NCBI GenBank assembly: GCA_964491305.1 | Contig: CAZBGG010000001.1 | Location: 1-36,016 of the forward strand | DNA from: an uncultured Methanosarcinales archaeon | GTDB taxonomy: Archaea > Nanobdellota > Nanobdellia > Woesearchaeales > DSVV01 | Direction: 5' to 3' | Length of the DNA stretch: 36,016 bases | Shown here: piece after piece, positions 2,845-32,851 of the stretch | Layout: each line of letters opens with the position of its first letter | Position numbering within the stretch: position 1 is the stretch's first letter | Notes under the pieces: model-generated | Seen by the model: only the letters and a program-made list of their open reading frames with translations | What the model was told of the DNA's origin: nothing | The model's database searches: none | Program-made: the position numbers and the translations under genes

Positions 2845-4098
2845 ATGAAAGTATTAATGTTGGGATGGGAATTCCCTCCTTTCAATGCAGGAGGGCTTGG
2901 TACGGCTTGTTATGGCTTGACCAAAGCCATGAGAGAGAAAGATGTGGATATCACTTTTGTCCTGCCAAGAATGAAAGGAGAAAATGATCCAAATTCCACC
3001 CACGTAAAGCTTATAACTGCCAATAACGTTTTCTTAAAAAACAAGTCATTCAAAATCAAGGCAATAAATTCACTTCTAGGAGAATACGTGAACTCTCAAA
3101 CATATGAAGAGAGGCTCGGGAAATTTAAGTATCTTCAGATGGAAAATAGAAGTGACTCAGAGGAGAATCCTTATGGAGAAAATCTTTACGAGGAGGTCCA
3201 TAGGTACGCGAAAAAGGTAAAAATAATCGCAGGTATAGAAGACTATGACATACTGCACGCTCATGATTGGATGACTTACCCTGCCGCCATTGAAGCCAAA
3301 AAAGAAACAGGTAAGCCCCTTATTGTCCATATACATGCAACAGAATTTGACAGGACCTGCGGAAACCCTAACCAGAAAGTTTATGATATTGAAAGAAGAG
3401 GGTTCCACGCATCCGACAAAATTCTAGCAGTTAGCAACTTAACCAAGCAAAAAGTGGTGGAGCATTATGGTGTACCACCAGAAAAGGTGGAAGTTGTGCA
3501 TAATGGTGTAGATTTTGGTAATATGAAAGAGAGTGAGATTAAGCCTCGCAATGGAAAGACTGTGCTATATTTAGGTAGATTTACTGTTCAAAAAGGACCT
3601 GAATATTTCCTATATTCCGCAAAAAAGGTAGTTGAATATGACCCTTCAATTACTTTTATCATGGCAGGAGGGGGGGATATGGAAGGCTTTCTTATAGATA
3701 AATCAGCTGAGATGGGGCTTGGAAAAAACCTTTTGTTTTCGGGATTCTTAAGGGGAGATGATATAGACAAAGCATATAAGATGGCCGACCTGTATGTGAT
3801 GCCTTCAGTTTCAGAGCCTTTTGGAATTACGCCTCTTGAGGCAATGAGAAACAATACGCCTTGTATCATATCTAAAAATTCAGGTGTTTCTGAAGTGTTG
3901 AAACATTGTTTTAAAGTTGACTTCTGGGACACCGACATGATGAGCAATATGATAATTGCATCACTCAATTACAAAACACTGCACAATACCATGAGAGAGA
4001 ATGGTTCAAAAGAAGTTTACCAACATAAGTGGGATTCTGCTGCAGTTAAGTGCATAAAAGCCTATAGGGATGTATTGAGTGAAACTTATAACAGTTAA
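2845..4098 (+). CDS. GT-B glycosyltransferase, glycogen/starch-synthase-like
   Basis: The N-terminus MKVLMLGWEFPPFNAGGLGTACYGLTKAM matches the K-x-GGL sugar-nucleotide motif of glycogen synthases. The C-terminal SVSEPFGITPLEAM is the E-x7-E motif of GT-B retaining transferases. It sits directly upstream of a GH57 gene. Confidence 0.8.
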   Translation: MKVLMLGWEFPPFNAGGLGTACYGLTKAMREKDVDITFVLPRMKGENDPNSTHVKLITANNVFLKNKSFKIKAINSLLGEYVNSQTYEERLGKFKYLQMENRSDSEENPYGENLYEEVHRYAKKVKIIAGIEDYDILHAHDWMTYPAAIEAKKETGKPLIVHIHATEFDRTCGNPNQKVYDIERRGFHASDKILAVSNLTKQKVVEHYGVPPEKVEVVHNGVDFGNMKESEIKPRNGKTVLYLGRFTVQKGPEYFLYSAKKVVEYDPSITFIMAGGGDMEGFLIDKSAEMGLGKNLLFSGFLRGDDIDKAYKMADLYVMPSVSEPFGITPLEAMRNNTPCIISKNSGVSEVLKHCFKVDFWDTDMMSNMIIASLNYKTLHNTMRENGSKEVYQHKWDSAAVKCIKAYRDVLSETYNS

Positions 4099-7059: not shown

Positions 7060-8253
7060 CTAATCAGGTCTGTATCTGAATGTGTAAACCTTGTCATTTT
7101 TTCTGGTAAGGCCAGCAGGTAAACCAATCACCTGTCCTTTATAGGCCTTTTTTACAGGAGAATCATTAAGCTGTATCGAATCTACCTTAATTTCCATGCT
7201 CCCGGTAGTAGGGCCTTGTATAAGTATTTCGTCACCCACATTTAGACCAGAAGTTTCTATTTTTATCTCTGCCACTTCAGGCTTCTTATAATAGTTTGTT
7301 ACCTTACCTATATATTCCTTGACTTTTGTGGCCTTACTACCATATGAATCCGACCATTGATTAATAGGTGTGGAAAGATAGAAACCACTTGAAAAATCCC
7401 TGTTATAAACGGTTCTCAGCTCCTCCTTTAGTTTGTGTTTCAGCTTGGGAGTTAATAGACCATTTTTGTGGGCTTCTACCGCCTCCCTGTATACTTTTAC
7501 AGTAGTTTTCACATATTCGGGAGAACGATTCCTACCCTCTATCTTAAAGGAACTTATATTCGACTCAATCAGTTTATCAATTATATCTATCGTACATAAG
7601 TCCTTAGGCGACATCACATAATGGTTATCAAGCTCTAATTCTTCACCTGTTTCAGGATCTTTTACCTTATATTTCCTTCTGCAGGGCTGAATACATTCTC
7701 CCCTGTTGGCAGATTTGCCATACAAATATTGAGACATGAAACATCTGCCTGAAACTGCAACGCACATGGCCCCATGAATAAATGATTCAATCTCCAAACC
7801 GGTTTTCATATTTCTTATTTGTTCAAGGGAGCATTCCCTGGCAAGAATTACTCTCGACACCCCTAGCTTTTCATATTCCTTTATAGCAAGTGAATTTGCT
7901 ACGGATGCCTGGGTAGATATATGAACGGACATGTTGTTTTTCTTCGCAATAGCAAGAACTGCCAAATCCCAGCAGATTATGGCATCAATTTTTGATCGAG
8001 ACGCCTCCCTGATTATCTTTTCAATCTCTTCAACCTCATAATCATAAACAATAGTATTTATAGCAAGATAGGCTTTTATTTTATTATCGTGGCATCTAAT
8101 GGCGATTTCAGGAATGTCATCTATACTGAAGTTTCTAGCTTTAGCCCTCATATTTAGCTTTCCTACTCCAAAATATATCGCGTCAGTCCTTTCGTTTATG
8201 GCAGCCGAAAGCATTTCCCAATTACCCGCCGGAGCAAGAATCTCTGGATTCAT
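7060..8253 (-). CDS. Peptidase U32 family protein
   Basis: The N-terminus MNPEILAPAGNWEMLSAAINERTDAIYFGV, and later E-x-F-x-HGAMC-x-A-x-SGRC (SFIHGAMCVAVSGRCFMS), are hallmark U32 motifs. Confidence 0.85.
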   Translation of the reverse strand: MNPEILAPAGNWEMLSAAINERTDAIYFGVGKLNMRAKARNFSIDDIPEIAIRCHDNKIKAYLAINTIVYDYEVEEIEKIIREASRSKIDAIICWDLAVLAIAKKNNMSVHISTQASVANSLAIKEYEKLGVSRVILARECSLEQIRNMKTGLEIESFIHGAMCVAVSGRCFMSQYLYGKSANRGECIQPCRRKYKVKDPETGEELELDNHYVMSPKDLCTIDIIDKLIESNISSFKIEGRNRSPEYVKTTVKVYREAVEAHKNGLLTPKLKHKLKEELRTVYNRDFSSGFYLSTPINQWSDSYGSKATKVKEYIGKVTNYYKKPEVAEIKIETSGLNVGDEILIQGPTTGSMEIKVDSIQLNDSPVKKAYKGQVIGLPAGLTRKNDKVYTFRYRPD

Positions 8254-9108: not shown

Positions 9109-9642
9109 ATGGCAGAGGAAGAACCAACAGTAATACACAATCAGATTTGTCCTATGTGTGAAAAAGAAGAGCTTACCTTGACAGAGCAGGAGAGGGATGT
9201 TTCATACTTTGGAAAAGTTTTTCTTTTCTCAATGAGATGTAATCATTGTGGATATAAAAAATCAGATGTGGAGCCGGCCGAAGAACATGAGCCCGCAAAA
9301 TACACGTTTGAGATTGAATCCGAAGAAGACTTGGGTGTCAGGATGGTGAAATCCGCACAGGCCACTGTAAAATTGCCAAGGATACTCACTATTGAACCGG
9401 GTGTTGCCTCTGTAGGTTATGTAACTAATATCGAAGGATTATTAGTTAGAGCAAAAGATGTTATTGAATCGGTAAGAGACAACTCAGAGGAAAAAGAGGA
9501 AAAGAAAAAGGCAAAAAATCTAATCAAAAAGATTATGAAAGTAATGCAGGGCAAAGACAAGCTAAAAATAACACTTGAAGATCCTACAGGGAATAGCGCA
9601 ATTATTTCGGAAAAAGCAACAAAAAGCAAAATTAAGAAATAA
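9109..9642 (+). CDS. ZPR1-type zinc-finger protein
   Basis: CPMCEKEELTLTEQERDVSYFGKVFLFSMRCNHCGYK is the C-x2-C...C-x2-C ZPR1 zinc ribbon with the following beta domain. I chose the ATG at 9109 (MAEEEPTV) rather than the track's TTG at 9049, whose extension is hydrophobic junk. Confidence 0.75.
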   Translation: MAEEEPTVIHNQICPMCEKEELTLTEQERDVSYFGKVFLFSMRCNHCGYKKSDVEPAEEHEPAKYTFEIESEEDLGVRMVKSAQATVKLPRILTIEPGVASVGYVTNIEGLLVRAKDVIESVRDNSEEKEEKKKAKNLIKKIMKVMQGKDKLKITLEDPTGNSAIISEKATKSKIKK

Positions 9643-11187: not shown

Positions 11188-11577
11188 TTAATCAGTTACT
11201 CCTCTCATCTCAACATACTTTTTCTGACGCAAATAAATATACCTTTTTAACCTTTTCTTAAGACCCAAATCCTGTGTAGCCACAATATAGCCTTCCTGTG
11301 AAAGCTCCACCAATTTGTCATCCACATGCTCTGTCTCTGTAGGTAATATTTGAATCTTTTTTTTTTCGACCAACTTCAGAGCAATATTTGCTGCTTTTTT
11401 ATCCGACTCTTTTCCGCTCTCACTTATCTTAGCAAGCTCGTTTAAGCTGCCGGAACATATAAATACTTCAATCTTGCCATAAACGGCTTTTTCAACCTCT
11501 TTATAAATATCAACGCCAAATTGCCCAGGAATCATTAAAAAGTTAGTATCCAGGACTATTTTGTGGATTTTTGACAT
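11188..11577 (-). CDS. PIN-domain protein (Fcf1/Utp24-like) heading the rpoE' operon
   Basis: VLDTNFLM (first acidic PIN residue), SLNELAK, and IVATQDLGLKKRL (ATxD motif). It ends 1 nt before rpoE'. Confidence 0.75.
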   Translation of the reverse strand: MSKIHKIVLDTNFLMIPGQFGVDIYKEVEKAVYGKIEVFICSGSLNELAKISESGKESDKKAANIALKLVEKKKIQILPTETEHVDDKLVELSQEGYIVATQDLGLKKRLKRYIYLRQKKYVEMRGVTD

Positions 11578-17658: not shown

Positions 17659-19230
17659 TCAACTTTTCTTAGGAATTCTCTCATCGATATATTTGAGCCT
17701 GTTGCAGCCGTCAAGAAAAGCTTCAATTCCGCTGTCTACAATGTTAGTATTTCTTCCCTGTCCTCTGATTTCCCAGCCATTCTTTTTAAGGGTTGAATTA
17801 GCATACCCTTCAGCATAGGAACCCCGGTCGCCGGCAGCAACTTTAAATTCGGTTATTTCGGTTTCAGGAAACACTACCTTTTTTATGGCGTTGATTGCCG
17901 CGTCAACCGGTCCGTTCCCCTCAGCATATTCCTGTCTGAGGGTTTCTCCTTCCATGAAATTCACAACTACACCTATTTTATCTACAACACCAACAATAGA
18001 ATGACAGCTCTTAAGGCTGTAGTGTTTTGGTATTTCCTCCCCTTTGTAATATGCCCTTATAAAATCCGCATCGTCAGGCTTTTTCATGGCATTCCCTGTT
18101 ATTTCGAAGAAAGTGTTTGCAACTTCATCGAAATTGACTTGTTCATTGTCTTTATTATCCACATCAAACCCGAGAGATTTATATTTATGCATGATTGCTT
18201 TTCTTCCTGATTGACCATTATATCCCAGGACTGATTCCATCCCATAGTCCAAGGGTTTTGCAATCTCATATGTGTCCCTGTTTTTAAGCATCCCGTCCTG
18301 ATGGATTCCTGCACTATGGTAAAACGCATTTTCCCCAACAACAGCTTTGTTTGGCTGGACCATCATATCAGTTATTTCGCTTACCTGTCTGCTCGTAGGT
18401 CCTATTTTTGCAGAATCAATACAGACATAAAGTTTGTTTCCTGAGGTGTCGTGTATATCTCCCCTGTGCATATTAAATACAAGTTCTTCCAAAGCAGCAT
18501 TCCCAGCTCTCTCACCTATACCATTTATTGTTACTTCCGCTTGTCTTGCACCTGCCTCCAGTCCCGCAATTGTCGTTGCAGTTGCAAGCCCCCTATCATT
18601 GTGAGTGTGTACAGAAAAAATTGCATCTCTGTTCATTGACCTCACATTATCAATTACATATTTCACCTTTTCGTGAAATCTCTGGGGCTTAAGGTAGCCA
18701 ACGGTATCAGGCAGGTTTATTGTTGTTGCACCTGCATTAATTACCTTGTCAATAATGTTTACTGCATAGTCATCATCAGTCCTTCCAAAATCTTCGAGAG
18801 AAAACTGCACATCGTCAGCTAATGTCTTCGCGTATTCCACTCCTTTGACTGCCCTTCCCATTATTTCCTTCCTGGTGGAATTAAATTTGTATTTTATATG
18901 AAGGTCACTTGTCGCAATAAATGTATGGATTCTCTTATTATATGCAGGCTCTATGGCGTCTGCAACCTTTTTTATATCCCCTTCAGCAATCCTTGAAAGC
19001 CCACATATTACAGGTCCTTCTTTAGTGCCGATTTTTTTGGCTATATCGTGCACCGAATCATAGATTTCTCTTGATGATGCGGGAAACCCAGCCTCAATCA
19101 CATCAACCCCTAAATCCCTCAGAGCATAAGCAATCTTCATCCTATCCTCAGCAAGCACATCTTCGGTTGCCTGTAAACCGTCTCTTAAGGTTGTATCAAA
19201 AACAATTACTTTATTTTCATCTTTTGCCAT
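17659..19230 (-). CDS. leuA: 2-isopropylmalate synthase (LeuA family, with C-terminal LeuA-dimer/regulatory domain)
   Basis: VIVFDTTLRDGLQ, the HTHNDRGLATA motif, and the C-terminal GNGPVDAAINAI...G.G.NTNIVDSGIEAFLDG. I start it at the ATG at 19230 (MAKDENK), which is preceded by GGAGGGAGAUAAAA. The track's upstream extension to 19353 is hydrophobic junk that overlies the 5' UTR. Confidence 0.85.
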   Translation of the reverse strand: MAKDENKVIVFDTTLRDGLQATEDVLAEDRMKIAYALRDLGVDVIEAGFPASSREIYDSVHDIAKKIGTKEGPVICGLSRIAEGDIKKVADAIEPAYNKRIHTFIATSDLHIKYKFNSTRKEIMGRAVKGVEYAKTLADDVQFSLEDFGRTDDDYAVNIIDKVINAGATTINLPDTVGYLKPQRFHEKVKYVIDNVRSMNRDAIFSVHTHNDRGLATATTIAGLEAGARQAEVTINGIGERAGNAALEELVFNMHRGDIHDTSGNKLYVCIDSAKIGPTSRQVSEITDMMVQPNKAVVGENAFYHSAGIHQDGMLKNRDTYEIAKPLDYGMESVLGYNGQSGRKAIMHKYKSLGFDVDNKDNEQVNFDEVANTFFEITGNAMKKPDDADFIRAYYKGEEIPKHYSLKSCHSIVGVVDKIGVVVNFMEGETLRQEYAEGNGPVDAAINAIKKVVFPETEITEFKVAAGDRGSYAEGYANSTLKKNGWEIRGQGRNTNIVDSGIEAFLDGCNRLKYIDERIPKKS

Positions 19231-19382
19231 TTTTATCTCCCTCCACATCAATATTTTTCTAAACATATCCTTGCTAAATTTTTTCAAAACAACCGCCGAA
19301 ACCCACAGCATAACTATACTGAATTTCTTGGAAGGGAAATAACCCTGTACCAATATTCCTTCTTCTACCTTGCTTTTATCTT

Positions 19383-19469
19383 CTCATTGTTTTTTCTTCC
19401 ATTTAAATTTCAAAAGGAAATCAGAATAAGGTCCATAAGTGTGTGACCTGTTCAAGAAAAAACAATGAG
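19383..19469 (-). promoter_or_regulatory. Perfect 16-bp long-range RNA helix in the leuA 5' UTR; the 5' arm contains a U6 tract
   Basis: On the minus-strand RNA, the arm CUCAUUGUUUUUUCUU (19469..19454) starts 6 nt after the leader stop. It is exactly complementary to AAGAAAAAACAAUGAG (19398..19383), which lies 55 nt downstream. A small hairpin GCUGC-UUUGA-GCAGC (19485..19471) holds the leader stop codon in its loop. Confidence 0.5.
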
Positions 19470-19475
19470 GGCTGC

Positions 19476-19538
19476 TCAAAGCAGCAACAGCAGTAGCAGT
19501 AGAAGGAATTGTTTCTTAATTATAACTGCCTGTTTCAT
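19476..19538 (-). CDS. Candidate leucine leader peptide, MKQAVIIKKQFLLLLLLLLL (20 codons, nine consecutive Leu)
   Basis: Hand-read sequence: atg aaa cag gca gtt ata att aag aaa caa ttc ctt cta ctg cta ctg ctg ttg ctg ctt tga. It is on the same strand as leuA and 245 nt upstream of it. A TATA box is placed so that transcription would begin at or next to this ATG. Confidence 0.5.
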   Translation of the reverse strand: MKQAVIIKKQFLLLLLLLLL

Positions 19539-19561
19539 AGTGGGAGGGGGCAAACACATCA

Positions 19562-19569
19562 TATAAAAA
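19562..19569 (-). promoter_or_regulatory. TATA box (TTTTTATA) for the leader-leuA transcript
   Basis: The minus strand reads ...aaaatatTTTTTATAtgatgtgtttgccccctcccactATG. There are 23 nt between the TATA 3' edge and the leader ATG, which is standard archaeal TATA-to-TSS spacing and implies a leaderless mRNA. Confidence 0.45.
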
Positions 19570-19598
19570 TATTTTGTTTTATTTTTAAAATCACCACA

Positions 19599-20189
19599 CT
19601 AGAATTTCTCCATGTCGTTAAACGCCATCACCTGAAAAAATACATTTTCATCAAAAAACTTTTTCTGTAAACTTTCTATCCTAAAGTTGGCTTGAATAGT
19701 ACTCTTTAGAGTCCTTTCAGATACAAACCTAATATAATGCTTCCCAAAATGGCTCCATTGCCTTATAGGACATCTACTTTTGCAAACTTCAGAATCAGAT
19801 GACAAAACAAAAGAATAGAACTTACCTCCAAATTTAAGAATCCTTGAATTGTAAGTATAAAAAAGACTAAGCTTGCTTTTGTACAGGTGAGCACTAAAGC
19901 CCACATCAAAAATAACATCAAACTTTCCTACCTGATTTTTGGCAAAATCAAAAAAATTAGAAGGATCAAACTTCCCTTTATAAAAAAACTTTCCAATCTT
20001 TTTTATGCCTTGCCTCTTTTTCGCATAACTCTCGACTCCTCTTGAACTGAATCCCAAAATTAAGATTTCCTTGTTTTTCGCCTTCTTCAATTCCTGCTTA
20101 ATTATCGAATCAACGTATGACTTAAACTCACTTTCAAAAAAATCCATAGGAAGTTGGTAAGTCATAAGATTATAAATAGTTATTGCCAT
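19599..20189 (-). CDS. Hypothetical protein, weakly class-I methyltransferase-like
   Basis: EILILGFSSRG (degenerate motif I), FDVIFDVGFSAHL (motif II/III-like) and LKFGGKFYSFV (motif IV-like). These are weak pattern matches only. Confidence 0.4.
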   Translation of the reverse strand: MAITIYNLMTYQLPMDFFESEFKSYVDSIIKQELKKAKNKEILILGFSSRGVESYAKKRQGIKKIGKFFYKGKFDPSNFFDFAKNQVGKFDVIFDVGFSAHLYKSKLSLFYTYNSRILKFGGKFYSFVLSSDSEVCKSRCPIRQWSHFGKHYIRFVSERTLKSTIQANFRIESLQKKFFDENVFFQVMAFNDMEKF

Positions 20190-22935: not shown

Positions 22936-23053
22936 TATCCCTCCTGTTTAACGAAAAGGCCGCTTAGTTAATAAATCTTTCGGCAATAAATAAATGCATA
23001 GATAGAAAACCGCAGTGCCAGGAGCTACGCCCGCAGCAATCAGATTAAAGAAG

Positions 23054-23183
23054 TGGGGACGCGGGGATTTGAACCCCGGACACCTAGATCTCCAATAATC
23101 ATTGGCAAACTGCCTCATCAGATCTTCAGTCTAGTGCTCTCCTTAGCCGGAGTCAACAACTCCACAGGCTGAGCTACGTCCCC
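23054..23183 (-). tRNA. tRNA-Phe (anticodon GAA) with two introns: the canonical 37/38 intron (34 nt, about 23090..23123) and an insertion of about 18-22 nt in the D-loop (about 23145..23166)
   Basis: The reverse complement reads GGGGACG-TA-GCTC-AGCC[TGTGGAGTTGTTGACTCC]GGCTAAGGA-GAGC-A-CTAGA-CTGAAG[ATCTGATGAGGCAGTTTGCCAATGATTATTGGAG]A-TCTAG-GTGTC-CGGGG-TTCAAAT-CCCCG-CGTCCCC-A. All four stems pair perfectly once the two bracketed segments are removed. No CCA is encoded. Confidence 0.85.
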
Positions 23184-26487: not shown

Positions 26488-27810
26488 ATGTTTGACATAA
26501 TAATTGGAAGAGGAAAAAAGGATAGAGAAAAATTTGGATCAAAAGGGACAATTTTCCTTGGAAAACAATATGTTAAGATGGGCCAAGTGACTTCTCTCTC
26601 AAATAACGTATTTATGGATATGGTAAGAAGCCACGTGCTTTTCATTTGTGGTAAGAGAGGAGGAGGCAAGTCCTACACAATGGGAGTTGTTGCAGAAGGA
26701 ATGGCCTCACTACCAATGGAAGTAAAACAAAATTTAAGCATAATACTACTTGATACCATGGGAATTTATTGGACAATGAAATATGGAAACCAAAAAGAGG
26801 AAAAGATGCTCAATGAATGGGGACTTGAGGGGAAAGGGCTTGATGTAAAAATATACACGCCCGCAGGATTCCACGATAAGCTCGTAGAAGAGGGCATTCC
26901 TTCAGATGCACCATTTGCAATCAAGCCCTCTGAACTTACAAATGACGACTGGTGCATAACTTTTGATGTCGCAAATACAAGCCCCATGGGAGTCCTAATA
27001 GAAAGGACAATCAATCAACTAAGGGATATAGAAACTGACTTCAGCATAGAAGATATAATAACTACTGTGAAAAAAGACACCAGGTCAGAAAAAAGCGTGC
27101 AGGATGCAGTTGAGAACATGTTTTTGAACACTCTAGACTGGGGACTTTTTGATAACAAAGGCACCCCTCTAAATGATCTAGCGGCTCCTGGCCAGGTTAC
27201 AGTGTTAGACGTCTCTTGTTATTCCTTGATGGCAAACAGCTGGAAAATTAAATGTCTTGTTACAGGATTAGTTTCCCAAAAGCTATTCAAACAAAGAATG
27301 GAGGCTAGGAAAAAAGAAGAATTTAAAGAAGTTAATCAATCAGTTCATTATTTTTCTTCAGATGAAGAATTCACAAAACAAGATATGCCACTTGTATGGC
27401 TGGTGATTGATGAAGCGCATGAATTTATGCCCCGAGAAGGTAAGACAATGGCAACAGACCCTTTAGTAACAATACTTAGAGAAGGTCGTCAACCAGGTAT
27501 TTCCATAATACTTGCCTCACAACAGCCAGGTAAGATTCATACTGATGTAATGACCCAATCCGACACGGTTCTTAGCCATAGAATAACAACAAAAATAGAC
27601 ATCGATGCACTATCAATGCTAATGCAGAGCTATATGAGAGAAGGTCTTAACTCAATGTTTGATAATCTTCCAAGAAGAAAAGGCTCAGCAATTTTATTTG
27701 ATGATACGAATGAAAGGATGATTCCTGTTCAGATAAGACCAAGGTTCACATGGCACGGCGGAGAATCACCTATCGCAATTCACGAAAAAAAAGATAAGTT
27801 CTCATTTTAA
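26488..27810 (+). CDS. HerA/FtsK-superfamily P-loop ATPase (DUF87-type)
   Basis: HVLFICGKRGGGKSYTMGVV is the Walker A motif, LVWLVIDEAHEFMP is the Walker B motif, and ILREGRQPGISIILASQQP is the Arg-finger/sensor region typical of HerA-like ATPases. Confidence 0.75.
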   Translation: MFDIIIGRGKKDREKFGSKGTIFLGKQYVKMGQVTSLSNNVFMDMVRSHVLFICGKRGGGKSYTMGVVAEGMASLPMEVKQNLSIILLDTMGIYWTMKYGNQKEEKMLNEWGLEGKGLDVKIYTPAGFHDKLVEEGIPSDAPFAIKPSELTNDDWCITFDVANTSPMGVLIERTINQLRDIETDFSIEDIITTVKKDTRSEKSVQDAVENMFLNTLDWGLFDNKGTPLNDLAAPGQVTVLDVSCYSLMANSWKIKCLVTGLVSQKLFKQRMEARKKEEFKEVNQSVHYFSSDEEFTKQDMPLVWLVIDEAHEFMPREGKTMATDPLVTILREGRQPGISIILASQQPGKIHTDVMTQSDTVLSHRITTKIDIDALSMLMQSYMREGLNSMFDNLPRRKGSAILFDDTNERMIPVQIRPRFTWHGGESPIAIHEKKDKFSF

Positions 27811-29619: not shown

Positions 29620-30198
29620 ATGAGCCTAAAAAAAGAAGTAAGGATAATTGGTATAGATGATGTACCATTCGACAAGTTCAAAGATCTTCAAACAAAAATT
29701 TTTGGTGTTATTTACAGGGGGGGATACTTTATGGAGGGCGTAGTTTCAGAGACCATCAATGTTGATGGAAGCGATTCGACTGAAAAGATTATAAAGATGA
29801 TAAAAGGTTCCAGATTTTATAAACAAATAAAGTATATTATGCTTGATGGCATAGCAGTTGGGGGATTCAACATAATTGAAGTTAGTAAACTTAGCAGAGA
29901 AACAAATAGAGGAGTGGTTGTTGTAATGAGAAAAAAGCCAGGACTGAAAAAGATTAGAAATACCCTTGATAAATTAGGTATGCAAGATAAGATCTCACTA
30001 TTACAAGGGATAGGGAGAATACACGAGATTAATATGGATAAGGGCATTTTATTTTTTCAGAACTACGGAATAAAAAGAGAAACAGCCGAGGGCTTGTTAA
30101 AAATCACATGCACCAATTCTTTGATACCCGAACCAATAAGAGTTGCACACATAATGGGAAAAGGAATCACCACAGGAGAAAGTAAAGGCTCTGGCTAG
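29620..30198 (+). CDS. DUF99/UPF0215 family protein (endonuclease-V-like fold)
   Basis: VRIIGIDDVPF...GVVSETINVDGSDSTEKIIKMIKGSRFYKQIKYIMLDGIAVGGFNIIEVSKLSRETNRGVVVVMRKKP closely follows the archaeal UPF0215 pattern as I recall it. Confidence 0.7.
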   Translation: MSLKKEVRIIGIDDVPFDKFKDLQTKIFGVIYRGGYFMEGVVSETINVDGSDSTEKIIKMIKGSRFYKQIKYIMLDGIAVGGFNIIEVSKLSRETNRGVVVVMRKKPGLKKIRNTLDKLGMQDKISLLQGIGRIHEINMDKGILFFQNYGIKRETAEGLLKITCTNSLIPEPIRVAHIMGKGITTGESKGSG

Positions 30199-30740
30199 TT
30201 TTTGAAGATAGTAAACCTGTCCCCGCTAATTATAAATTCATTCTTTTTTTCAAGATTTCTCGGGAAAAATTCTTCGCCATGAACTATAAGCTCTCCTCTT
30301 AGCTCTTTTTTTAGCTTGGAATCAAGGTCATCCCTAAAGAAAGGTTTATCAGGGCTTATATAAATTACTTCGTATCCAGACAAATCATGTTCAAGGTAAT
30401 TCTTTTGCAAAAATTTAGTATTCTTAAAATGGGGAATTGATAGCTTTAGCCTTTGTTGCATGGCCACGTTGATTAAATCGTTATCTATCTCAATTCCATG
30501 ACTTTTAACAAAAAAAAGTGAGGCCAGTAAAACAACTCTCCCATCGCCAGCACCAAGGTCAACAAAAGAACTCCTGTGTTGGAGATTTATTTTTCTAAAA
30601 AGCTCAAATAAGCCATCGACAGGAGTTGCACCCCAGTAACCAATTCCTGTGTCTTTTACAGGAAGTATTCCACTTTTCAATAAATCATTTATGTAGTCAT
30701 CGTAAGTACTCTTAATTTTTTTGAAATGGTGGGAATTCAT
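30195..30740 (-). CDS. Class I SAM-dependent methyltransferase
   Basis: FVDLGAGDGRVVLLAS is motif I and SHGIEID is the motif II acidic residue. I prefer the ATG at 30740, which forms an ATGA overlap with the stop of the upstream TIM-barrel gene. The track start at 30770 is also possible. Confidence 0.7.
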   Translation of the reverse strand: MNSHHFKKIKSTYDDYINDLLKSGILPVKDTGIGYWGATPVDGLFELFRKINLQHRSSFVDLGAGDGRVVLLASLFFVKSHGIEIDNDLINVAMQQRLKLSIPHFKNTKFLQKNYLEHDLSGYEVIYISPDKPFFRDDLDSKLKKELRGELIVHGEEFFPRNLEKKNEFIISGDRFTIFKN

Positions 30741-32851
30741 TCGAAAGGAACCTCGCTCCAAAGTTTCCATTCATTCGAAGGAACATAGCTTCCAAATGCA
30801 AAATACGGGCTTTGTACCTGAGGGAAATAACCATTTTTCACATTCGCAAAAGAAGGGTTTGGAGCTGCAGCCCCATATCCGCCAATGGTTGAACCAAAGT
30901 GTTTCCAGGTTTCAGTCAATATCCTACCTTGTCCAAAAAGACTTTCTTCCCCATGAGCTTCTGAGACAATTGTTCCTTTATATCCTTTCTCCTTTAGATG
31001 CTCCAAGGCTTCATAAAGAGGAAGATTCCCCTGTCCCGCTGGAAGATGATGATGTCCTGAACCCATGGAATCAACCAAATGCATATGACCAATTACTTCT
31101 GCATCCTGCATTTTTTCTATCATTTTTTTGTACCACTTATTAAACCTCTCTCTTCTTTGATCATATGTTTCTCCTTCAAGAGGCTGGAAGTTTTTCCACC
31201 ACATGCCTAAGTGTTGGGTATCAACAGTAGCTTTTATGTGCTCTTTTGCCTCCTTATTAGCCTCGTTCTTTGATAGACCCCTATAGTGAGGATTTATTCT
31301 TTTCTCAGTTTCACCAGTGGCAGGATCATATTCCTCAATATATTTTGACGTAAGACGCTCAACCATTTTATCCCTAGCATTACTAACAAGCTCGATCATC
31401 TCCTCAGGGTGTGAACCATAACCCATCTCTGGAAAGATATTCTCCGGAGCTATAAAAATAGGTTTCTCAATATCCTTCCTTTTGCTTTCCTCCATAGCCT
31501 CGATACCTAACTCAGCATAACTTTCCATAGACTTCCTCTTGGCATAGTCACCAATGGGCTCCATAGTATTAAGTTTCATCTCCGCTTCCTTAGCGTTTGT
31601 GGTATAGGAAGAAGAAAGTGCTGCTATTTCCTTTCTCTGACTAATCAAGTCAGCCTCAACTTCTCTTTCAAGAAATTCAGAAGGTTTCATCCCCTCCTTT
31701 TTTATGGCTTCAGATATCTTCTCTTGATCCAGGCTTTGAGGAAACTCTGAATAAAATGAACTAAGCAGTCCTATCTTTTGCTCATCACTTAAATTATCCT
31801 CATCGATGCCTCTAAAATATTCTTTCCTTTTTTTAACATTCTCAAGCTGTTTTTCAACCTGATCATAGTTCCTTGAATAGTGATAAGAAAGACCTTTACT
31901 CTGATTAATCTGGGTCTTAAACTTGGTACGCATAAACATCTCAGCAGGGGTCATTTTTTTACCCTCTTTATTATGCTGGTTATATTCGTCTGCCATCCTT
32001 TTGAAATCTTCCCACTTCAAAGGTCTTGTTTTGAAGGCTTCATCTTCACCATTTGTTTCTGGAACACCCTTGTCAAAGACTTCATACTCATGTATTGGAT
32101 TTCCGTGACCATCGATATACTGGCCTTTCTCGTTTTTTTTATAATCCGCCTCGTAGACCACCATATTTTTTCTTACATCTTGAATAAGACTTCCGGTGCG
32201 GCTGTCCACAAGATAATGCGCCTGGTTTTTGTACTCGTCCGGATAGGAGAGAAATTCATAGATGTTACCTTGCTCATCCTTTACAGCCCTCTCCTTATCT
32301 TTACCTTGAATAGTCACCGGCTTTTCATTCCATTCCATATCCGACATATCCCTCCAATATTCACCCGTATGAACAACAACAGCCCCTCCTTTAGTAACAT
32401 CAGACGCAAACTTTATGGCTTTTTTTATCTCTTCTACACTCTCTGCCCTTTGTTGGTCACTAAAACCTTGTTGTGGATTAAAACCTGATAAATTGCCTAT
32501 ATTTGTCGGGGCATGGACAGAGGTAAATTCAACCTGGTTCACTTTTGATAGCTCCCTTAATGCTTGCCTAGCATCGTGGCCATAATTTTCGGCCCCCACA
32601 GGCTCTCCCCCTCCTCCTTGGCCCACCTGAAGCTCAATTTTAGCAGCACCGGTTTTTATGGCGTTCTGTGAAGTCTGAATAAGGCTGCCAAAACGAGCCC
32701 CCTCCGTTACAGTTTGTCCTAAGTCACGTATACCTATAGGGGCCTCAACTTTTTCTTCAGGTGAGCCTCCAGAATATTGTCCCCAGTAGCCAGAGGAGTC
32801 AACAAAATAGTTCCCTCTATGAGGGGGGACATATCTAACATAGTCTGTCAT
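30737..32851 (-). CDS. Xylose-isomerase-like / AP-endonuclease-2-type TIM-barrel protein interrupted by an insertion of about 300 aa
   Basis: The barrel motifs are in the right order: KIELQ, FTSVHAP, AVVVHTGE, then (after about 300 aa) IFIAPEN, VDTQHLGMW, IGHMHLVDS, GHHHLPAGQGNLP and GTIVSEAHG. This call rests on pattern recall, not on a search. Confidence 0.6.
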   Translation of the reverse strand: MTDYVRYVPPHRGNYFVDSSGYWGQYSGGSPEEKVEAPIGIRDLGQTVTEGARFGSLIQTSQNAIKTGAAKIELQVGQGGGGEPVGAENYGHDARQALRELSKVNQVEFTSVHAPTNIGNLSGFNPQQGFSDQQRAESVEEIKKAIKFASDVTKGGAVVVHTGEYWRDMSDMEWNEKPVTIQGKDKERAVKDEQGNIYEFLSYPDEYKNQAHYLVDSRTGSLIQDVRKNMVVYEADYKKNEKGQYIDGHGNPIHEYEVFDKGVPETNGEDEAFKTRPLKWEDFKRMADEYNQHNKEGKKMTPAEMFMRTKFKTQINQSKGLSYHYSRNYDQVEKQLENVKKRKEYFRGIDEDNLSDEQKIGLLSSFYSEFPQSLDQEKISEAIKKEGMKPSEFLEREVEADLISQRKEIAALSSSYTTNAKEAEMKLNTMEPIGDYAKRKSMESYAELGIEAMEESKRKDIEKPIFIAPENIFPEMGYGSHPEEMIELVSNARDKMVERLTSKYIEEYDPATGETEKRINPHYRGLSKNEANKEAKEHIKATVDTQHLGMWWKNFQPLEGETYDQRRERFNKWYKKMIEKMQDAEVIGHMHLVDSMGSGHHHLPAGQGNLPLYEALEHLKEKGYKGTIVSEAHGEESLFGQGRILTETWKHFGSTIGGYGAAAPNPSFANVKNGYFPQVQSPYFAFGSYVPSNEWKLWSEVPFE

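Follow-up and report, generated by a model that had tools for sequence, protein, structure and literature searches.

Upstream of leuA on a 36,016-nucleotide contig of archaeal DNA (CAZBGG010000001.1, termed the window), we analyzed a short leader open reading frame (ORF) that ends in nine consecutive Leu codons. Taking all evidence together, this element is best explained as a leucine sensor that acts in cis and consists of a leaderless upstream ORF, a reading to which we assign a probability of about 70%. Judged by sequence comparison, the ORF is very probably a conserved regulatory leader dedicated to Leu sensing, and it represents the first well-supported archaeal candidate for amino-acid sensing by a leader peptide in the bacterial manner. 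In bacteria, leader-peptide attenuation follows, as textbooks describe, from the coupling of transcription and translation, and Archaea, too, couple these two processes. A previous sequence-only reading of the window had proposed such an attenuator. Its core, a Leu-codon sensor ORF acting in cis, withstood the comparison with related loci (14/15 loci, fixed TATA spacing, reading frame kept), whereas the detailed terminator/antiterminator anatomy did not.

The Leu-tailed leader ORF and its relatives

The leader ORF comprises 20 codons at 19476..19538 including the stop codon, with its ATG at 19538 and the TGA at 19478-19476, as read from the strand and verified by a scripted coordinate check; this and all further leader elements described below are located on the minus strand. 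It encodes the peptide MKQAVIIKKQFLLLLLLLLL, whose last nine codons (CTT CTA CTG CTA CTG CTG TTG CTG CTT; 19479..19505) are Leu codons of four types that abut the stop and form the proposed Leu-tRNA sensor. The distance from the stop to the leuA ATG at 19230 is 245 nt, and no ORF of at least 60 amino acids overlaps 19354-19598 on either strand. The TATA box TTTTTATA (19562..19569) lies 23 nt before the leader ATG, occupying positions -31 to -24, and is directly preceded by an A-rich stretch resembling a B recognition element (BRE; AAAACAAAATA, 19570..19580) that is identical in the closest relative, L081. Given this TATA position, transcription would start at the leader ATG or no more than 1-2 nt away from it, yielding a leaderless mRNA, and with a TATA box centered ~26-27 nt before the start codon the ORF fits archaeal leaderless genes in its geometry. 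The description given by the sequence-only reading of the ORF, its four Leu codon types and its distance to leuA was thus confirmed base for base, as was the TATA box, with the leaderless placement gaining support from the matching geometry in 13/13 loci. The same TATA-to-ATG geometry, with the 8-mer starting at -29 to -32, was also observed before seven long genes of the window (9109-9642, 26488-27810 and 29620-30198 on the plus strand; 30737-32851, 11188-11577, 7060-8253 and 947-1501 on the minus strand), which suggests that transcripts of this genome are leaderless as a rule.

A protein search with the window LeuA yielded one close homologue (P0001, 87% identity) and ~25 homologues at 45-52%, with 87% identity being the best match in a search of 5.8 billion proteins, among whose hits the window LeuA itself did not appear. 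Where named, the homologues belong to Nanoarchaeota, Nanobdellota or an 'uncultured archaeon', with Bacteroidota following at ~44%. The locus set consisted of the DNA around 12 homologues and two further loci from a metagenome scan, and 15 distinct loci were counted. This metagenome scan, swamped by generic LeuA motifs, added L090, L092 and L138, with the upstream DNA of L138 being too short to judge. A scan of GTDB genomes with LeuA returned only Bacteroidota (41-51% identity), which were reused as negative controls, and a viral scan added nothing useful.

At least one short ATG-initiated ORF with a terminal Leu run was found upstream of leuA on the same strand in 14 of the 15 archaeal loci (LeuA 45-87% identical), the sole exception being L090, where leuA overlaps the preceding gene and no leader ORF is present. 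The gene neighborhoods of the 15 loci are unrelated to one another, and the leaders share a common design comprising a TATA 8-mer at -28 to -32, a leaderless ORF, a Leu run near the stop and a stem-loop at the stop. The first leader ORF measures 19-22 codons in 11/14 loci, and in all cases the Leu tail of 4-9 residues ends 0-1 codon from the stop. Up to their stop codons, the leader peptides read ...GLALLLLLALLL and ...LLLLLMLLPLLTLLS (L081), ...NLLFLSLLL (L082), MSRLIKLTFLNLLL and ...AISLLLLLLL (L083), ...ASDLLLL and ...PLLLLLGLLLGLLD (L084), ...SLLGLLLLEL (L086), MVAEAKALVLLTLLLL (L087), ...ISLLALLLLL (L088), ...QLALVLLLL (L092), MAKKICNKSELSLALLLLLL (L170), ...SLSLLLLLL (L171), ...SLLALLLC and ...STLLLLLLLLLR (L173), ...LNLLALLLLL (L174), and ...HMLVLLLE and ...LTLLLLLLTLLL (L176).

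The statistic behind this count was set beforehand: an ATG-ORF of 8-70 codons with at least four Leu among its last six codons, located at most 400 nt upstream of leuA. On the sense strand 12/13 loci scored initially, rising to 14/15 once L092 was reclassified as archaeal and L176 was added, whereas the antisense strand gave 0/13 loci. With a background of 0.023 Leu-tailed ORFs per 400 nt, determined on 192 kb of the same loci, the binomial P for 13/14 loci is ~7e-21, and the same statistic for the other 19 amino acids yielded zero loci. The genome and metagenome scans supplied 149 control regions upstream of leuA, of which two scored, L092 and L145; the former turned out to be archaeal, as indicated by a PCNA neighbor, leaving 1/148 bacterial controls with a Leu-tailed ORF. 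The remaining control, L145, carries upstream of leuA (~1215-1268) an ORF encoding MSLETAASARGLLLLLP that looks like a real bacterial leu leader of proteobacterial appearance, serving as an unplanned positive control for the scan. The 43 Bacteroidota leuA loci nearest to the DPANN LeuA clade are devoid of Leu-tailed leader ORFs upstream, indicating that the leader was not simply co-transferred with a bacterial leuA.

At the codon level, Leu accounts for 119 of 170 terminal codons across 17 related leader ORFs, with every one of the six synonymous codons represented (CTG 45, CTT 22, CTC 14, TTA 14, CTA 12, TTG 12), indicating that the coding meaning is conserved and not a nucleotide repeat. Outside the Leu tail the peptide is not conserved. 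Comparison of the window with L081 showed conservation of the promoter, the ATGAAAC start, the beginning of the Leu run and CTGCTGCT-N-T-N-AGCAGCCCTCATTGTT, with the indels within the leader ORF summing to 6 nt, so that the frame is kept. By this comparison the ORF is under selection as an ORF, and it is probably translated. An antisense ORF starting from the conserved CAT was ruled out on the basis of the 0/13 antisense hits and a frame that, by eye, is not maintained (7 codons in L087), with no suitably placed TATA seen either. Likewise, a prfB-like +1 frameshift at CUU UGA was ruled out, as other loci end in CUA UAA, CUC UAA, UUA UAG and the like.

In 13/13 loci the first leader ATG is preceded by a match of at least 7/8 to TTTAWATA that begins between -28 and -32, with L082 matching 7/8 at -28; the chance of a match at that distance is 0.012. 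Aligned on the leader ATG, these promoters show T at -28 (13/13), T at -29 and A at -25 (11/13 each), and a BRE-like A at -33 (12/13). In contrast to the leader ATG, the leuA ATG itself is not preceded by a TATA match of at least 7/8 at -29 to -32 in any of 14 loci (the window and 13 relatives), which rules out a separate leaderless leuA promoter in the loci lacking a Shine-Dalgarno (SD) sequence. leuA would therefore be read from the leader transcript, with both ORFs on one RNA and the promoter upstream of the leader ORF. An agnostic scan of the 36-kb window and 13 loci, on both strands, for a TATA box at -29 to -32 followed by an ATG and an 8-45-codon ORF with a triple residue, returned the leuA leaders (13/14 loci), an in-frame variant of the window leader and two other hits.

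Five loci carry tandem Leu-tailed ORFs, the first leaderless and the second SD-led (L081 2417-2485 and 2719-2922; L083 887-931 and 984-1079; L084 2509-2568 and 2608-2718; L173 2238-2297 and 2346-2435; L176 2230-2292 and 2339-2437). This arrangement points to a duplication of the sensor module, which might make the response steeper. In L081 the two ORFs are separated by an A-rich insert of ~230 nt (2486-2718), indicating that the leader region is evolutionarily plastic, and a DDE transposase gene is located nearby at 160-1119. L088 harbors a second small ORF of another kind (~2946-3008, MKNKTQKTINKKQFWGNKNG), Leu-free and SD-led, whose stop overlaps the leuA start (ATGGGTAG) in the geometry of termination-reinitiation coupling.

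RNA elements of the leader and the proposed output

The 316-nt leader of the window folds with -86.7 kcal/mol, better than 100/100 dinucleotide shuffles (z -3.84). Its outer helix P1 pairs a 5' strand comprising the last Phe codon and the first Leu codons (19489..19509) with the purine-rich 'anti-Leu' strand AGCAAGGUAGAAGAAGGAAU (19355..19374) at -20.5 to -21.5 kcal/mol. This helix between the first Leu codons and a downstream UAGAAG(G) strand is also kept in L081, where its extension differs from that of the window. At the end of the ORF, the sequence GCUGCU-UUG-AGCAGC (19471..19485) forms the small hairpin already described by the sequence-only reading, with the UGA stop partly in its loop. 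Stem-loops starting at -11 to +6 of the stop recur among 17 leader ORFs with a mean z of -1.33, four loci showing z < -2.4 and L171, L174 and L092 reaching z near -5. The stop is followed by the motif GCAGCCCTCATTGTT (19461..19475), identical in L081, whose core C-N-CAU-W, that is C-N-CAU-(A/U), occurs 7-28 nt past the stop in 10/19 leader ORFs, scored over the 40 nt after the stop, compared to a background of 5.7% (post hoc P 2e-8). In the form (G)CCC-N-CAU-(U/A), it is found at L081 2486-2500 and 2923-2935, L083 ~948-962, L084 2581-2595, L087 2976-2990 and L088 2893-2905, as well as in L092 and L176. No pairing partner of the motif was identified, and it is not complementary to the anti-SD. 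A U6 tract, representing a candidate archaeal pause or termination signal, is located 14 nt past the stop (19457..19462), and T6-7 tracts at most 30 nt after the last leader stop are found in 4/14 loci compared to a background of 4.7% (P 0.003).

We propose that transcription would start at the A of the leader ATG, as suggested by the TATA position (-31..-24) in a geometry shared with 13 relatives and the long window genes, and that a ribosome would load on the 5'-terminal AUG and translate the 20 codons, the last nine being Leu up to the stop. When charged tRNA-Leu is scarce, the ribosome would dwell on the Leu run, following the logic of known leader-peptide sensors. Parked there, it would keep the 5' strands of P1 (19509-19489, paired with 19374-19355) and of the stop stem-loop (19485-19471) single-stranded and free the P1 3' strand (19374-19355), while also covering ~36 nt of nascent RNA behind a polymerase pausing at U6 (19462-19457). 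Under scarce leucine the stalled ribosome would shut out the termination machinery, permitting read-through into leuA. With ample leucine, the ribosome would leave at the UGA, and the exposed U-rich Leu-codon RNA, stop hairpin and U6 would lead to termination, either intrinsic or via aCPSF1/FttA.

That starvation turns leuA on appears rather probable to us. As the output we prefer, tentatively, control by premature termination, to which the conserved geometry points in combination with the FttA footprint: the Leu run abutting the stop, the stop stem-loop, the short spacer and, in a subset of loci, U6-7 following 5-25 nt on. This geometry would suit a mechanism in which it is the coverage of the final ~30 nt of the leader ORF by a stalled ribosome that counts. 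Termination efficiency in Archaea is set by U-tracts together with aCPSF1/FttA (PMC8716108, PMC11616081) and does not require a hairpin (PMC8716108). FttA needs the nascent RNA at -1 to -36 with a preference for U-rich sequence at -30 to -36, and a mutual exclusion of FttA and the coupled ribosome has been hypothesized (PMC11616081). For a polymerase located at the U6 of the window, positions -1 to -36 fall exactly on the final Leu codons together with the stop codon and the conserved post-stop motif. In its complete form, the proposal describes an archaeal-route, hairpin-free attenuator, conserved across Nanoarchaeia and sometimes arranged in tandem, in which a ribosome stalled on the terminal Leu run excludes aCPSF1/FttA or U-tract termination and starvation thereby promotes leuA transcription; that all these parts apply jointly we regard as doubtful.

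Several observations weigh against the proposed leucine sensor with its termination output. Only 5/14 loci have a U tract of at least five residues no more than 35 nt from the last leader stop, leaving 9/14 without T5 or longer in this range, and the spacers of several loci (L171, L087, L092, L088) lack a U tract, so that oligo-U termination cannot be the universal output. In the window no hairpin is directly followed by a U run, the gap between the stop hairpin and U6 being 8 nt. Two RNA elements of the window treated below are not shared with L081: the homologous arms of the 16-bp helix reach only -6.1 kcal/mol compared to -20.5 kcal/mol in the window, and the anti-SD element is not found in this 87% relative. 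The sign of the regulation is not fixed by the sequence, and in a plain polarity model, based on the loss of coupling, starvation would result in less leuA. Furthermore, leuA stands alone, with no leuBCD or ilv neighbors in the window or in any of the 14 related loci, and LeuA scores just under the NCBIfam equivalog cut-offs, making its physiological role in reduced genomes uncertain.

Alternative explanations

The same Leu sensor might instead act on translation, with the stalled ribosome refolding the RNA and thereby altering the access to the leuA ribosome-binding site, on the model of the leaderless polyCys small ORFs of mycobacteria and the actinobacterial LEU element; we consider this possible. 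In the window, a pyrimidine-rich anti-SD-like segment (ACAGGGUUAUUUCCCUUCCAA, 19327..19347; UUAUUUCCCUUCC) could sequester this site, pairing with the SD and AUG of the leuA initiation region (19231-19248) at -16 to -19 kcal/mol (z -3.59, matched by 0/200 shuffles), and this helix forms when the 3' half of the leader is folded to its energy minimum. The stretch of Leu codons is likewise able to pair with the SD (-13.7 kcal/mol), and L171 and L174 show clear alternative 1:2 versus 2:3 pairings with segment 3 adjoining the leuA AUG. A translational output would also suit the tandem leader ORFs with their SD-led restarts, and a four-segment terminator switch would not fit into most spacers (35-78 nt). 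However, folding of 13 loci with a ribosome mask in three states (no ribosome, A site placed on each Leu codon, ribosome located at the stop) predicted no consistent change in how accessible the leuA initiation region is, and in L171, where a change is predicted, accessibility drops upon stalling. A significant leader partner of the initiation region was found in only 2-3 of 14 loci (the window, L171 and weakly L174), and L081 lacks a conserved counterpart of the anti-SD segment. In the window, the Leu codons pair best with 19374-19355 and not with the SD; the best partner of the initiation region overlaps the Leu tail in ~6/14 loci, as read from the listed positions, with those duplexes not being significant. 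An SD is present in about half of the archaeal leuA genes. These models thus lend no support to SD masking of the mycobacterial polyCys type as a general switch, whereas the window may still have such a layer, since its anti-SD:SD helix is the minimum-energy fold of the leader 3' half.

An output at the level of mRNA stability is unlikely. By analogy to ermC/ermA in Bacillus, a ribosome stalled ~35-60 nt from the 5' end could shield the transcript from 5'-to-3' decay by aRNase J or aCPSF2. Requiring no conserved downstream structure, this would suit the variable spacers, the clustering of first-ORF lengths (19-22 codons in 11/14 loci) and the location of the ORF at the extreme 5' end. It is a pure analogy, though, as no tested feature speaks for stability specifically, and it leaves the stop stem-loop and the enriched U6-7 tracts unexplained.

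Quite improbable is a classical bacterial attenuator, in which U6 and a 16-bp helix would provide alternative terminator and antiterminator conformers competing with a pairing to 19517-19508. The underlying elements exist as the sequence-only reading had stated. The 5' arm CUCAUUGUUUUUUCUU (19454..19469), specific to the window and containing the T6, is complementary in 16/16 positions to the 3' arm AAGAAAAAACAAUGAG (19383..19398); read as CTCATTGTTTTTTCTT (19469-19454) against 19398-19383, with 55 nt between the arms, this perfect helix reaches -20.5 kcal/mol. The imperfect 10-nt pairing of 19517-19508 with the U6-containing segment is likewise present (90%), in a stretch that is poorly conserved in L081, and the whole leader is more structured than its shuffles. 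The role assigned to these elements did not hold up. While the examination of relatives proposed along with the attenuator recovered the Leu-run ORF in 14/15 loci, the helix is missing in L081, which pairs GCCCUCA with UGAGGGC in its place. The helix comparison relies on this one close relative, the others being too divergent to align outside the ~30-nt module. U6 lies within the 5' arm and not after the stem, and T6-7 follows the last leader stop in too few loci (4/14) for a general signal. The 3' arm runs into the A-rich sequence AAGAUAAAAG with no U tract after it, and is therefore not a terminator stem. In the folds comparing a stalled with a terminating ribosome, also suggested earlier, the 16-bp helix persisted in every modelled state, implying that it does not switch; the main helices of the window persisted as well, and archaeal termination needs no hairpin in any case (PMC8716108). 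A bacterial-type intrinsic terminator, consisting of a GC stem and a U run, is not present between the leader ORF and leuA in the window. As the only other match to the terminator consensus, the window contains a weak terminator-like hairpin (GCUGU/GCGGU, followed by UUGUUUUGA; 19284..19310) with a 5-bp stem and U4, whose 5' arm can alternatively pair with leader codons 1-7 in the full-length minimum-energy fold. Rfam gave no hit to a leader or riboswitch family, including Leu_leader RF00512, at the gathering threshold in the window, and at E-values up to 10 the region 19150-19700 matched no amino-acid leader or riboswitch family, yielding only chance miRNA-type matches to the long hairpin.

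We consider it very unlikely that the ORF is incidental to a conserved protein-bound RNA or DNA site or to an untranslated CUG-rich structured RNA. The post-stop motif C-N-CAU-W and the stem-loop are conserved with no function assigned to them, and Leu-codon mutations in the Streptomyces leuA leader deviated from the prediction of classical attenuation (PMC1262725), both of which would suit such an element. The conservation of coding meaning over nucleotides in the Leu run, with all six codons used including UUR, argues against it, as do the ATG located invariably at the TATA-defined start, the stop 0-1 codon past the run, the frame kept across indels and the lack of anything comparable on the antisense strand. 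Finally, a functional small hydrophobic peptide merely co-transcribed with leuA, as its basic amino terminus and hydrophobic tail resembling a membrane anchor or signal peptide might suggest, is highly implausible given the unconserved sequence outside the Leu tail, a tail of 4-9 residues too short for a membrane span, its exclusive link to leuA amid unrelated neighborhoods and the tandem copies in five loci.

Relation to known systems and genomic context

The leucine sensor proposed here resembles the enterobacterial leu leader (leuL; Rfam Leu_leader RF00512) and the trp, his, phe, thr and ilv attenuators, which likewise carry a short, co-transcribed, same-strand ORF with end-product codons in the 5' leader, encoding a peptide that is otherwise unconstrained. 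The cognate codons characteristic of such attenuators are found here as nine consecutive Leu codons in the window and as Leu tails in 14/15 loci, with other amino acids not enriched. In contrast to leuL, the archaeal ORF is leaderless instead of SD-led and is placed behind a TATA/BRE promoter in an archaeal host, and with 4-9 codons its Leu run exceeds that of leuL in length and extends to the stop. A GC-stem-plus-U terminator, a conserved terminator/antiterminator pair and an Rfam match are all missing here.

In its logic, the element most closely matches the leaderless sensory ORFs of mycobacteria and Deinococcus and the Leu-run ORF of the actinobacterial LEU element. The mycobacterial polyCys small ORFs (sORFs) of the Cys 'ribulon' are also leaderless first cistrons with the codons of the sensed residue near their end and a gene of the same pathway downstream; their regulation by ribosome pausing was shown experimentally, and the sORF pairs with the downstream SD (bioRxiv 10.1101/834739). 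For the archaeal leaders, pairing between sORF and SD is not consistently predicted, and about half of the leuA genes lack an SD. The LEU element comprises a Leu-run leader ORF before leuA as well, with the Leu codons paired to a purine-rich downstream strand; it folds into a conserved pseudoknot, with the Leu codons and the leuA SD pairing in the base stem, and its authors favored protein binding, as the effects of Leu-codon mutations were unlike attenuation (PMC1262725). In the window, however, the Leu codons have 19374-19355 as their partner strand instead of the leuA SD, and there is no conserved pseudoknot. The leaderless leader peptides of Deinococcus deserti, located upstream of amino-acid or aminoacyl-tRNA synthetase genes, share the coincidence of transcript start and start codon and the enrichment in the cognate amino acid (PMC4007540), differing in being bacterial, with predicted classical terminators and a sigma-70-type -10 promoter. 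If the output is termination, the ribosome at the end of the leader ORF would block a termination factor beside the stop, as in the tnaC/Rho system of the E. coli tna operon. tnaC, however, responds to free tryptophan inside the exit tunnel with a stall at the stop codon, whereas Leu-tRNA supply and aCPSF1/FttA would be involved here.

In the literature searched, no archaeal leader-peptide attenuator or attenuation system is described, in line with the statement of the sequence-only reading that none had been established experimentally. Attenuation goes unmentioned in a review of archaeal transcription-translation coupling, and one tool paper states generically that upstream ORFs act in Archaea, giving no case. 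If the termination proposal is true, ribosome-mediated attenuation exists in Archaea, in a factor- or U-tract-based form working without terminator and antiterminator hairpins. With the host uncultivated, the leader of ~60 nt (60-300 nt) offers a transplantable test object for cis regulation by archaeal ribosomes, which could separate U-tract/FttA termination, translation and RNA decay as outputs. Its signature (TATA, ~22 nt, ATG, ~20 codons, amino-acid run, stop) is usable to seek further archaeal sensors. A leucine sensor would further imply that genome-reduced DPANN archaea invest in the fine regulation of a lone leuA.

The leuA gene (17659..19230, minus strand) is a stand-alone gene encoding a LeuA-family 2-isopropylmalate synthase of 523 amino acids with a LeuA_dimer regulatory domain, its homologues showing the Pfam domains HMGL-like, HCS_D2 and LeuA_dimer. 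The best NCBIfam score of the window protein (NF002086, 510 bits) is just below the cut-off of 532; that the sensor codons are Leu codons speaks for a leucine-linked function of this homologue just under the curated cut-offs. Its ATG is preceded by the SD GGAGGGAG (19237..19244). Upstream of this SD-led start, an in-frame TTG (19353) and ATG (19311) are present on the minus strand, with the frame open for 41 codons. This extension probably reflects chance (~6%), because it is not homologous to the amino-terminal extension of the L081 LeuA. A role of the purine-rich anti-Leu strand as SD of TTG 19353 is unsupported, as the spacing to the start would be only 3 nt. L081, furthermore, has no start codon at the equivalent place of this TTG, and the extension is not homologous to its amino terminus.

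The surrounding genes are of archaeal type, including GatE, aIF2-alpha and archaeal DnaG, and the window (G+C ~37%) further encodes an Rpb7/RpoE-like subunit and a class III signal-peptide protein. The nearest named GatE homologues belong to metagenome-assembled genomes of Candidatus Nanoarchaeia, Nanobdellota and Woesearchaeota. Together with an intron-bearing tRNA gene, the GatE, aIF2-alpha and DnaG genes and these GatE homologues therefore identify the window as a DPANN archaeal contig, Nanoarchaeia/Woesearchaeota-like. The intron-bearing gene, for tRNA-Gly(CCC) (23053-23183, minus strand), measures 131 nt for a tRNA of 95 nt as drawn by ARAGORN; missed by a default ARAGORN run, it was found by both Rfam and ARAGORN -i.

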